Of a DNA stretch of 56,242 bases, positions 4,612 through 47,839 are shown piece by piece. Position numbers and translations under genes: made by a program. Position 1 is the first letter of the stretch; each line of letters begins with the position of its first letter. The stretch is taken from contig JBBSHJ010000006.1 of NCBI GenBank assembly GCA_038253135.1, positions 1 through 56,242 of the forward strand, given 5' to 3'. Source of the stretch: Mycobacteriales bacterium (GTDB lineage Bacteria > Actinomycetota > Actinomycetes > Mycobacteriales > QHCD01). The notes beneath the pieces were generated by a model, which searched no databases, was not told the origin of the DNA, and was given only the letters and a program-made list of their open reading frames with translations.

Positions 4612-5385
4612 GTGGCGCAGCGGACCAGCGGCTCGTCGCCGCGACCGGGTGAGGCCCGTCCGGTAGCCAGGATCAACGGCGCAGCGGCGCACGAGCTCGA
4701 TCCGCTGCGCGCGATCCCCGAAGCGACGATTGCCCGGCTGGCCGTCTACCTGCGCGTGCTCTCCGCGATCACCGAGGGCGACACCACCGTCGTCTCTTCG
4801 GACGAGCTGGCGCTCGCGGCCGGTGTCAATTCCGCCAAGCTGCGCAAGGATCTGTCCTATCTCGGCTCTTACGGCACCCGCGGCGTGGGATACGAGGTGG
4901 GCACGCTGATCGGCCAGCTCTCCGGGGCGCTGGGCTTGCTGCAGGATCGATCCGTGGCGATCGTCGGCCTCGGAAATCTCGGTCAGGCGCTGTCCGGTTA
5001 CGCCGGATTCGCCAGCCGGGGGTTTCGCATCGCGGCACTCTTCGACGCGGACCCGGCCCGCATCGGTACGACGATTCGCGGGCTCACGGTGCGCGACGTC
5101 GCCGAGCTCGGACATTACGTCGCGGTCGAGGGAATCTCGATCGGGCTGATCGCCGTTCCGGTGACGGCGGCACAAGAGGTATGCGACGCGCTGGTCGCGG
5201 CCGACGTGACGAGCATTCTCAACTTCGCACCGACGGTGCTGTCCGCGCCCGAAGGGGTTGACATCCGCAAGGTGGACCTCGCGATCGAACTGCAGATCCT
5301 CTCCTACCACGAGCACCGCAAGTCGGCTCGGCCGCCGAGCGCTCTCGTGCGGGGCCGGGCGCAGGCTCAGTTGGGGGACCGATGA
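4612..5385 (+). CDS. rex: Redox-sensing transcriptional repressor Rex
   Basis: IPEATIARLAVYLR, VNSAKLRKDLSYLGSYGTRGVGY, VGLGNLG, ILNFAP. Lies upstream of hemA; GTG start after AGGAG. Confidence 0.96.
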   Translation: MAQRTSGSSPRPGEARPVARINGAAAHELDPLRAIPEATIARLAVYLRVLSAITEGDTTVVSSDELALAAGVNSAKLRKDLSYLGSYGTRGVGYEVGTLIGQLSGALGLLQDRSVAIVGLGNLGQALSGYAGFASRGFRIAALFDADPARIGTTIRGLTVRDVAELGHYVAVEGISIGLIAVPVTAAQEVCDALVAADVTSILNFAPTVLSAPEGVDIRKVDLAIELQILSYHEHRKSARPPSALVRGRAQAQLGDR

Positions 5386-5483
5386 GCCTTGTGCGTCGAC
5401 TGACGAGGGAGCGAGCATCCGGGCGCGCCGGGTGCCGCGCTTCGCGGGTGCGGCGCGCAGCGACCGAGCAGGTCGCGCCATGA
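5382..5483 (+). repeat. Junction repeat copy (rex-hemA) encoding a 33-aa coupled mini-ORF
   Basis: MSLVRRLTRERASGRAGCRASRVRRAATEQVAP*; ATGA overlaps with both the rex stop and the hemA start; internal hairpin GCGCGCCG...CGGCGCGC. Confidence 0.85.
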
Positions 5484-6790
5484 GTCTGCTGATCGTCGGC
5501 GTGTCGTACCGGACGGCGCCGGTCGAGGTCCTGGAACGGCTCAGCATTCCCGCAGCCGAGATCGCGCCCGTGCTGCGCCGCACGATCGGCTCGGAATGGA
5601 TCGACGAAGCGATGGTCGTCTCGACCTGCAACCGGGTGGAGGTCTACGCCGAGGCGAGCAGGTTCCACTCCGGCCTGGCCGAGATCACGTCGATGCTGGC
5701 CGAGCGGGCCGGCATTACGCTGGCCGAGCTCGGCGAATACCTCTACGTGCACTACGAGGATGCCGTGGTCGCGCACGCCTTCCGTGTCGCCGCCGGACTC
5801 GACTCGCTCGTCCCGGGTGAGGCCCAGATCCTCGGTCAGGTACGCCAGGCCTACACGGCGGCGGTGGCTGCCGGCACAGCGGGACGCGTCATCCATGAGC
5901 TGGCGCAGAAGGCGTTGCAGGCGGCGAAGCGGGCACGGGCCACGACCGGTCTGGACCGGGCCGGGGCATCGGTCGTCGGCGTTGCACTCGACCGGGCCGG
6001 CGAGACGATCGACCTCGCGTCGGCGCACGCGGTCGTCGTCGGCGCCGGGTCCATGGGGGCGCTGGCGGCCACCTCACTGCGGCGAGCCGGCGTCGACCGG
6101 CTCACACTGGTCAATCGCACCGAAGCGCGGGCCCGCCGCCGGGCGCATGAGCTGGCCGCCGAGGTGGCGTCGTACGACGATATCGAGGGCGTGATCGCCG
6201 ACGCCGACCTCGTCGTGGCCTGCACGGCCGCCAGCCGGTACGTGCTGCGCGCCGATCAGATCGCTCGCGCCGTCAGCGGCAGGGTCGACCGGCCGCTGCT
6301 CGTCCTCGATCTTGCGATGCCACGGAACGTCGATCCCGAGAGCCGTTACCTGCCGGGTGTTGCCTGCATCGACCTCGACGCCCTCGCCGACCACGGCGGA
6401 TCGAGCACCGCCACGCTCGAGACCGCGCGGACCCTCGTCGACTCCGACGTGGCCGCGTTCCTGTCCGCCCAGCGCGCCGTACAGGTCACACCGACCATCA
6501 CCGCGCTGCGCAACCGGGCGCAGGAGGTCGTGGAGGCCGAGCTCGCCCGCCTCGACGCGCGCCTGCCCGGGCTCGACGAGGCGGTCCGCGACGAGCTGGC
6601 GAAAGCCCTGCGACGGACCGTGTCCACGCTCCTGCACAAGCCGACGGTGCGGGCGAAGGAGCTGGCCGAGGCGCCGGGCGGCGACTCGTACGCCGAGGCG
6701 TTGCGCGAGCTCTTCCAGCTCGAGTTGGCGGGAATCGGGCCGGCGGCCGTGACGAAATCGGTGGAGCCCGCGTCCGGAGGCGCCGCATGA
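5480..6790 (+). CDS. hemA: Glutamyl-tRNA reductase
   Basis: MSLLIVGVSYRTAPV, STCNRVEVY, GLDSLVPGEAQILGQV, VGAGSMG, DLAMPRNV. Confidence 0.96.
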   Translation: MSLLIVGVSYRTAPVEVLERLSIPAAEIAPVLRRTIGSEWIDEAMVVSTCNRVEVYAEASRFHSGLAEITSMLAERAGITLAELGEYLYVHYEDAVVAHAFRVAAGLDSLVPGEAQILGQVRQAYTAAVAAGTAGRVIHELAQKALQAAKRARATTGLDRAGASVVGVALDRAGETIDLASAHAVVVGAGSMGALAATSLRRAGVDRLTLVNRTEARARRRAHELAAEVASYDDIEGVIADADLVVACTAASRYVLRADQIARAVSGRVDRPLLVLDLAMPRNVDPESRYLPGVACIDLDALADHGGSSTATLETARTLVDSDVAAFLSAQRAVQVTPTITALRNRAQEVVEAELARLDARLPGLDEAVRDELAKALRRTVSTLLHKPTVRAKELAEAPGGDSYAEALRELFQLELAGIGPAAVTKSVEPASGGAA

Positions 6791-45685: not shown

Positions 45686-45740
45686 CCGCCCGAACTCATA
45701 AGCCGGCTAATCACTTCAGAAAGCGACGAGGAAGACACCA

Positions 45741-47681
45741 GTGGTCAACCAGACGAGCGCGTCCCTCGCCACGGCGTCGGCGAGCGGCGGCCTGCAGCAC
45801 GGCGCATGGCTGCTGATCGCCGCGCCGCTCGTGTCGGCGCTCATCCTGCTGATCGTGGGCCGTCGCGGCGACAGGTGGGGGCACTACCTCGGCGCCCTCG
45901 TCCCGATCGCCTGCTTCGTCTACGCGCTCATCCTCTTTTTCAACCTGCGCGGCAAGGCACCCGACGAGCGCGCCTACAACGTGCACCTGTGGGACTGGAT
46001 CTCGGTCGGCGGTTTCACGATCGACGCCGGCCTTCGGGTCGACGTGCTCTCCATGTGCTTCGTGCTGCTGATCACCGGCGTCGGCTCGCTGATCCACATC
46101 TACTCGCTCGGCTACATGGCGCACGATCCGAAGCGACGGCGATTCTTCGGCTACTTCAACCTGTTCGTCGCGGCCATGCTGCTGCTCGTGCTCGGCAACA
46201 GCTACCTCAGCCTGTACGTCGGATGGGAGGGGGTCGGCCTGGCGTCGTACCTGCTCATCGGCTTTTGGACCTACAAGCCGGTGGCGGCCACCGCGGCGAA
46301 GAAGGCGTTCCTGATGAACCGCGTCGGCGACGTCGGCCTGAGCATCGCGATCATGCTGATGTTCGCCCAACTCGGCACCGTGTCCTTCGACGGTGTCTTC
46401 AGCAACGCCGGAGCCATGTCGGGTACGGCGCTGACGGCGATCGCATTGCTGCTCCTGCTGGGCGCCTGCGGCAAGTCCGGACAGATGCCCCTGCAGGCAT
46501 GGCTTCCGGATGCCATGGAGGGCCCGACGCCGGTGTCGGCTCTGATCCACGCGGCGACCATGGTCACCGCCGGCGTCTATCTGATCGCCCGGTCCAACCC
46601 GATCTTCGACCTGACCCATGACGGTCGCACGGCCGTCGCGGTGGTCGGCGCGGCCACCCTGCTCTATGGATGCGTCGTTGGTTGTGCCTACGACGACATC
46701 AAGAAGGTGCTCGCCTATTCCACGGTCAGCCAGATCGGCTACATGTTCCTGGCCGTCGGGCTGGGTCCGGCGGGCTACGCGATCGGCATCATGCACCTGC
46801 TCGCGCACGGATTCTTCAAGGCCGGCCTCTTCCTCGGCGCCGGATCGGTCATGCACGCCATGAACGATGAGGTCGACATGCGCAGGTACGGCGGGTTGTG
46901 GCGCCTGATGCCGGCCACCTTCGTCACGTTCGGGCTCGGTTATCTCGCCATCATCGGCTTTCCCGGACTCTCGGGATTCTTCACCAAGGACAAGATCATC
47001 GAGGCGGCCTTCGACCAGGGCGGCGCGTCCGGCTGGATCCTCGGCCTTTGCGCGCTGCTCGGCGCCGGCCTGACCGCCTTCTACATGACCCGGTTGATGA
47101 TCATGACCTTCTTCGGCAAGCGCCGCTGGGTCACCGACGCGCACCCGCACGAGGCGCCGATGGTCATGGTGCTGCCGATGGCGCTGCTGGCGATCGGCTC
47201 GATCGGCGCGGGCGCATACTTCGTTGTCGGCGGCCGCATGCAGCACTGGCTCGAGCCGGCGCTCGGAAAATCCACGGAGGTCGGGGCCCACACCATCAGC
47301 TCGGTCGTGTTGACCGTGCTGACCTTGCTCGTCGTCGCGATCGGCATCGGCGGGGCATTCATGGTCTTCGGCCGGTCCGAGGTCCCGGCGACCGCGCCGA
47401 GGACCGTGTCACCGATGACCGTTGCCGCCCGCAAGAACCTTTACGGCGACGCCCTCAACGAGGGCCTGATCGCGCATCCCGGTGAGTGGACGGCCCGCCT
47501 ACTGGTCTTCACCGACGGCCGGGGTGTGGACGGCCTCGTCGGCGGCGTGGGCGCGCTGCTCGGCGGGACGTCGGCTCGCCTGCGCCGCACCCAGACCGGT
47601 TTCGTACGGTCCTACGCGCTGTCGATGCTCGGCGGGACCGTCGTGCTGTTGCTCGCGCTGATGATGGTGAGGTTCGGATGA
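45741..47681 (+). CDS. nuoL: NADH-quinone oxidoreductase subunit L
   Basis: [44 protein letters not shown]. Confidence 0.97.
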
Positions 47682-47839
47682 GGGTGCGTCGATTGACGAG
47701 GGAGCGAGCTTCGTCGACCGACGAGGGAGCGAGCATCCGAGCGAGGTACGAGCGAGGCGCGCAGCGACTGAGGAGATCGACCAGAAGCATCGAGGAGCTT
47801 GCGACGTGGGGCGCAGCGACTGAGGAGATCGCGCGATGA
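47678..47839 (+). repeat. Junction repeat copy (nuoL-nuoM) encoding a 53-aa coupled mini-ORF
   Basis: [57 protein letters not shown] overlaps at both ends. Confidence 0.9.

Follow-up and report, generated by a model that had tools for sequence, protein, structure and literature searches.

Dispersed MIRU-type repeats at stop/start overlaps in operons of an uncultured Mycobacteriales bacterium, with a probable role in relaying translational coupling

Introduction

Mycobacterial interspersed repetitive units (MIRUs), reportedly described by Supply et al. in 1997, provide the closest known parallel to a family of short repeats that we report here from gene junctions within operons of an uncultured Mycobacteriales bacterium. 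The analysis started from a 56,242-nt stretch of DNA (hereafter the window), contig JBBSHJ010000006.1 (C6) of a draft genome of 3.33 Mb in 163 contigs (70% G+C, 91% complete). According to published accounts, MIRUs are 40–100 bp long, occur in tens of copies per genome, lie between genes inside operons in the orientation of the flanking genes, and contain overlapping small open reading frames (ORFs) of shared orientation, without dyad symmetry (PMC4473831), that overlap the stop and the start of their neighbours by 4 nt. Filled and empty sites, direct repeats that include tetranucleotides, and imperfect terminal inverted repeats have been described (PMC3184786), as have tandem arrays of variable copy number, and the MIRU04 locus in the senX3-regX3 spacer is built from units of 77 bp and 53 bp (PMC2453075, PMC4213456). 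A 2025 review already interprets MIRU insertion as preserving translational coupling, with a probably minimal effect on expression (PMC12548453).

We consider it very probable that the window elements belong to a dispersed, non-coding, minisatellite-like repeat of MIRU type, inserted at stop/start overlaps and carrying a mini-ORF that probably relays ribosomes from one gene to the next. The design and this interpretation are already in print. Novelty, raised as possible in a preliminary description of this DNA, lies in the host, in the end modules of the subfamily and in the breadth of the core that it shares with other repeats. Our literature search, which lacked most subscription journals, found no published description of such repeats outside Mycobacterium.

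Results and discussion

Junction elements of the window and their empty sites

In all five full copies in the window, an NTGA on the stop of the upstream gene opens a stop-free frame, and the TGA that closes this frame overlaps the start of the downstream gene (Table 1), matching the 4-nt overlaps at both neighbours in MIRU descriptions. Sequence reading and frame following confirmed what the preliminary description had recorded: six elements with shared modules, stop-free mini-ORFs, NTGA overlaps and seven NTGA-to-NTGA distances, with the resB-ccsB copy lacking the upstream overlap. The nuoD-E bridge was missed by the iterated family profile in the genome search and resembles the family only over its last 36 nt. 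A repeat search within the window recovered eight copies of the 3' module (36 nt, 75–100% identity) and six of the 5' module (31 nt), as well as 104 nt common to the nuoB-C and nuoL-M copies (88% identity). As proposed earlier, the 3' module supplies the downstream Shine–Dalgarno sequence (SD), its GGAGG lying 7 nt ahead of the duplicated start. Pfam assignments of the flanking genes were Rex-like, GlutR, ResB, Cytochrom_C_asm and Proton_antipo_M, together with the 20, 30 and 49 kDa subunits and the 2Fe-2S component of complex I.

The history of these junctions was reconstructed from the GTDB family of the host (nine genomes, four genera). In relatives, the rex-hemA (8/8), nuoB-C (7/7) and nuoC-D (5/7) junctions consist of a single NTGA and the nuoL-M junction of a single GTGA (4/4), which bears out the earlier proposal of insertion at former stop/start overlaps and provides the empty sites on which that proposal was to be judged; a single NTGA is also present at nuoD-E in both genomes of the nearest genus. 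The resB-ccsB genes of relatives are separated by a spacer of 2–4 nt without overlap (8/8). At filled sites, the duplicated piece of the target takes in the NTGA together with the opening codons of the gene downstream, which accounts both for the double NTGA overlap and for mini-ORFs that start like real proteins (MSD..., MSL...). The units have thus inserted into gene junctions along with a short target duplication, and filled and empty sites with direct repeats, including tetranucleotides, are also among the features given for MIRUs. The reverse case was observed as well: a junction with a single ATGA in this genome (contig C111) holds 1.5 units in a genome of another genus, G004, and 0.5 units on a second G004 contig. 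Since filled and empty sites are reciprocal between the two genera, insertion took place in both lineages after their split, and the difference between the two G004 contigs indicates that copy number varies within the population. Among contigs from four DNA runs, no empty form of the window copies was found, in a noisy comparison in which most contigs end inside repeats and joints arise from other family copies; the nuoD-E copy, and no other, was bridged by contigs from two other studies' DNA runs.

The two relatives without the plain overlap at nuoC-nuoD hold an unrelated 38-nt element there, a single copy in G006 and a 4 x 38-nt array in G001, with 38 nt from NTGA to NTGA in each case.

Table 1 Junction elements of the window, with their mini-ORFs and duplicated targets
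Feature	Position in window	Strand	Structure	Mini-ORF	NTGA-to-NTGA distance (nt)	Target duplication
rex-hemA copy	5382..5483	+	One 83-nt unit with an extra GC-rich internal segment	33 codons, ATGA to ATGA	98 (5382 to 5480)	~9 nt, ATGAGCCTT / ATGAGTCTG
Unrelated bridge before resB	14340..14366	+		8 codons	23 (14340 to 14363)	
resB-ccsB copy	16109..16171	+	3' half of the unit only	Opens 3 nt past the resB TAG stop, closes in ATGA at the ccsB start		
nuoB-C composite copy	35342..35521	+	5' module twice, 3' module twice	Single, 59 codons, ATGA to GTGA	176 (35342 to 35518)	ATGAGCGAC / GTGAGCGAC
nuoC-D copy	36330..36413	+	Plain 69-nt unit plus linker	27 codons, TTGA to ATGA	80 (36330 to 36410)	5–6 nt
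nuoD-E bridge	37747..37842	+	Family likeness (3' module, 78%) limited to the last 36 nt	31 codons, ATGA to GTGA	92 (37747 to 37839)	
Unrelated nuoJ-nuoK bridge	45345..45389	+		14 codons	41 (45345 to 45386)	
nuoL-M composite copy	47678..47839	+	Sister of the nuoB-C copy	53 codons, ATGA to ATGA	158 (47678 to 47836)	5–6 nt

A dispersed family with tandem arrays

Iterated nhmmer searches seeded with the 84-nt nuoC-D unit recovered 94 unit matches at 63 loci across the draft genome, or about 60 loci once those split over contig ends are removed. This is the genome-wide search that the preliminary description had called for, and the orientation of the matches is strongly biased towards sense (see below). 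Full-length units measure 69, 70 or 71 nt (consensus 70 nt), most matches span 59–90 nt and some cover part of a unit, values within the size and copy-number range given for MIRUs. The layout of the ~70-nt unit comprises the 5' end CGTCGACYGACGAGG, a purine-rich core and the 3' end GCGACYGAGGAGGTCGCG, which carries the SD. Single units occupy 41 loci, and the remaining 22 of the 63 are arrays (14 double, 7 triple and 1 quadruple), in keeping with the variable tandem arrays described for MIRUs. Arrays have a period of ~80 nt, with a ~10-nt linker between units that echoes the sequence bordering the array. Where the period is 80 (2 mod 3), every linker contains an NTGA; in an array on contig C11, the period is 81 (0 mod 3), the linkers are without NTGA and one frame crosses three units. 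The array periods therefore fit the reading-frame logic of a relay. As 12 of the 63 loci lie <300 nt from a contig end and at least two are present on two contigs (and so counted twice), the repeat family helps to break the assembly of this draft genome.

The linkers and flanks consist of sequence duplicated locally over varying lengths, and arrays clearly expand by local duplication, so that slippage at each junction might in principle have generated the whole set, with the likeness between loci coming from a shared ribosome-binding and start context and no mobile family involved. We regard this as exceedingly improbable, because ~70 nt are shared with a mean column identity of 84% at dozens of unrelated loci, because copies also occupy non-coding and antisense sites, and because sites filled in one of two genera are empty in the other and vice versa.

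The family can also be set beside miniature inverted-repeat transposable elements (MITEs), which are likewise short, non-coding and dispersed, duplicate their target, have weak terminal inverted repeats and are often co-transcribed with genes (PMC3184786). Unlike in MITEs as described there, the duplication in this family varies in length (5–6, 9 or 18 nt) and the inverted ends amount to just 7 bp; the 91% complete draft yielded no parent insertion sequence sharing these ends, and the strong strand bias and reading-frame phasing of the repeat are not MITE features. Repetitive extragenic palindromes and bacterial interspersed mosaic elements (REP/BIME), in the same account, are short intergenic repeats inside operons (PMC3184786), but REPs are palindromic hairpins without phased frames, whereas the units studied here mostly fold no better than shuffled sequences. 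A plasmid collection searched by blastn with one unit of the family and one from a relative gave no match.

Orientation, coupling and phase

Gene context was taken from a codon-score gene caller (3002 genes covering 84% of bases, with approximate start positions). Co-directional gene pairs flank 41 loci, and at 34 of these the repeat is in the sense orientation, with seven antisense, which upholds the sense orientation claimed for the window copies and agrees with the placement of MIRUs inside operons and oriented as the flanking genes. Five other loci lie between convergent genes and three between divergent genes, the rest being at contig ends. Of 32 sense loci, 12 have a nearby NTGA on each side, as against 0 of 7 antisense loci (chance per side 0.17 and 0.13). 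Following frames from the upstream stop to the downstream gene gave an unbroken chain of NTGA-coupled frames at 19 of the 34 sense loci, extending the MIRU-like double overlap beyond the window; in four of the 19, the repeat is simply read as part of a neighbouring gene, closing the upstream one or opening the downstream one.

Taken together with the anatomy of the window copies, these observations favour a translational-coupling relay as the best reading, one already proposed for MIRUs in the 2025 review (PMC12548453) and put forward for this DNA in the preliminary description. The left duplicate with its NTGA would retain the upstream stop and the original start signals, this start now opening a mini-ORF across the repeat, and the right duplicate would give the mini-ORF a TGA that overlaps the real start behind the SD of the element itself. 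Ribosomes ending the upstream gene would restart on the mini-ORF and then again on the downstream gene. We propose that insertion is cheap, and is retained, because ribosomes restart at both overlaps, the same meaning of low-cost insertion through preserved coupling as is attached to MIRUs in print. Insertions inside operons that break the chain would be lost, arrays would expand and contract by recombination between the duplicated linkers, and the mini-ORF peptide would be a by-product.

Several observations weigh against this relay or against a strict form of it. The strict chain test failed at 15 of the 34 sense loci: at least six of these lie at the very end of the upstream gene, with the element's own CTGACG as the stop and 55–460 nt to the next gene, one array (C33 21703) has in-frame stops, one locus (C20) has an 8-nt overlap, and the remaining failures are uncoupled. 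Phase is similarly loose, with 8 of the 22 units that have an NTGA near both ends falling out of phase (five at 0 mod 3 and three at 1 mod 3). Stop-free frames come cheaply because the sequence is T-poor, and the gene starts used for these tests are, as stated, approximate. With regard to mobility, no element of 300–3000 bp with the same ends was found in the 91% complete draft, and the variable length of target duplications (from 5–6 to 18 nt here, and up to 24 nt in a relative) misfits one simple transposase. The coupling design is a strong tendency and no strict rule.

The earlier emphasis on distances of 2 mod 3 holds for all seven distances in the window, and genome-wide it becomes a bias (14 of the 22 units, in a count that includes array copies and enters at least two loci twice because they fall at contig ends). 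The accompanying figure of (1/3)^7 is not independent evidence, as it restates that a frame runs from NTGA to NTGA.

The preliminary description had further suggested that the mini-ORFs might yield Arg-rich micropeptides, so that the repeat would be a family of genes for small peptides. Window copies read in one frame do give similar products (VRRLTRERAS...RAATEEVA), but other copies use the other two frames, and the frame through the repeat varies between RRLTRERA..., S(I/T)DEGAS... and VDRRGGEHP... depending on the locus. Because the mini-ORF does not keep to one frame of the repeat from locus to locus, no peptide is conserved. In addition, the unit length of 69, 70 or 71 nt shifts the frame between the two modules, seven intergenic loci are antisense, and further copies sit in untranslated spacers or are read in frame within an ABC ATPase and a DUF993-like gene. 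The suggestion is thus not upheld, and we judge a micropeptide gene family to be very unlikely.

Seven loci lie within called genes. The DUF993-like gene on contig C2 has, with a repeat copy at 53540-53608, an in-frame insert of 81 nt (27 codons) that four relatives lack; it comes with an 18-nt target duplication, and the duplicated target resembles the 5' module of the element itself. On contig C22, two antisense units (21753-21929) contribute 59 in-frame codons to the ABC ATPase gene, at a point that separates the Walker B motif from the H-loop; matches of relatives end at residue 546, just ahead of these units.

An alternative in which the element acts mainly as an RNA structure (a processing, stability or attenuation site), with incidental frames, draws on the two unit ends, which are able to form 7 bp (94.8% of cells paired) and in which profile positions 6 and 66 covary (A-T 24, G-C 8, A-C 4 and C-T 1 at 37 loci). 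The stem includes or adjoins the SD, so a closed element could hide this site up to the point of mini-ORF translation. Folding analysis gave a different picture, since six of seven units fold no better than shuffled controls (z from +0.04 to -1.43, the remaining unit reaching -2.28), two different folds compete, and in a 22-sequence alignment a double change affects only one of the seven pairs, with 15 of 500 shuffles pairing equally well. The window contains no Rfam match that reaches the gathering score, 20 units searched with E values up to 1 likewise matched no family, and structure alone leaves the NTGA phasing unexplained. We therefore consider a mainly structural role improbable; an SD-masking stem may exist as an addition to the relay. 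For MIRUs, one account states an absence of dyad symmetry (PMC4473831) and another speaks instead of imperfect terminal inverted repeats (PMC3184786); here the ends can form 7 bp with one covarying pair, in folds that are not stable relative to shuffles.

Distribution across Mycobacteriales

The end modules have a narrow distribution. Across 185,579 species genomes, with the genome itself excluded, the exact 22-nt 3' module occurs on two contigs of one other genome, a metagenome-assembled genome named 'Mycobacteriales bacterium', and blastn with one unit found the repeat in 4 of 41 relatives, with strong matches only in this genome and G004. Profile R1, a sequence-only profile from an alignment (A1) of 22 units, had matches in 23 of the 151 genomes searched within the order, representing 8 of 19 families, and these matches cover the core only. 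The matched sites in other families are themselves junction repeats, bounded by an NTGA on either side and with duplications in the flanks that reach 24 nt; examples are an array of 6 x 77 bp and a lone 53-nt insert with a 24-nt duplication. An alignment (A2) of cores from nine genera, including this genome, has 27 invariant columns, and a purine-rich core of ~40 nt is common to junction repeats in at least nine Mycobacteriales families. Profile R2, built from this shared core, matched 44/151 genomes of a genus rich in the PPE family (g16), often as period-77 arrays with units running from ATGA to ATGA; R1 gave a single, weak true match in five g16 genomes. From established knowledge of the PPE family, we take g16 to be Mycobacterium-like. 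Another genus, g8, had been considered as Mycobacterium and was ruled out by the PPE marker.

The presence of the ~40-nt core in the 77-bp arrays of g16, a period equal to the unit length reported for MIRU04 in the papers cited above, adds to the points of likeness. The repeat is most likely a distant member of the MIRU superfamily, as judged from published descriptions, the core profile and the period of 77, and identity with the classical MIRUs is likely, with the M. tuberculosis units compared by description. It differs from MIRUs in its host, a Mycobacteriales bacterium outside Mycobacterium belonging to a small uncultured family (PPE matches in 0 of 9 genomes, this genome and its family), and in having its own 5' and 3' end modules, which are able to pair together. 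The earlier proposal of a lineage-specific element therefore applies to the subfamily with its end modules, which sequence comparison places in this lineage, and not to the core, which appears common across the order.

A broader and more tentative interpretation, which we rate as possible but rather doubtful, places MIRUs as a single branch within a superfamily of junction-seeking repeats that spans the order, in which the core is kept almost unchanged at non-orthologous sites and the ends are swapped between lineages. If so, conservation of the core would call for a conserved trans-acting partner that copies or recognises it, or for the core to have a role of its own; its three GAGG motifs might, for instance, retain ribosomes after the stop until they restart, and in the present subfamily the paired ends would also mask the SD until the mini-ORF is translated.

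With this family, the MIRU design reaches past Mycobacterium into an uncultured relative. The family also illustrates how a selfish repeat may persist cheaply in essential operons, namely those for complex I and for haem and cytochrome c assembly, by duplicating the stop/start overlap and bringing its own ribosome-binding site, which leaves the frames coupled. The order-wide core could help to find what copies such elements. On the practical side, repeats of this type break assemblies and give rise to false small genes and false N-terminal extensions in annotation.

Other repeats in the window

The two short bridges at 14340..14366 and 45345..45389 showed no similarity to the repeat family in a profile search. 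The nuoI-nuoJ spacer (window 44462-44616, 155 nt) contains an internal direct repeat of ~40 nt that is also unrelated to the family, and at the same junction relatives of genus g3 have one to three copies of a palindromic element with duplications of GACCGATGACC on its flanks. Short tandem repeats are present at 17605-17719 (18 nt), 29706-29780 (15 nt) and 42352-42426 (15 nt).

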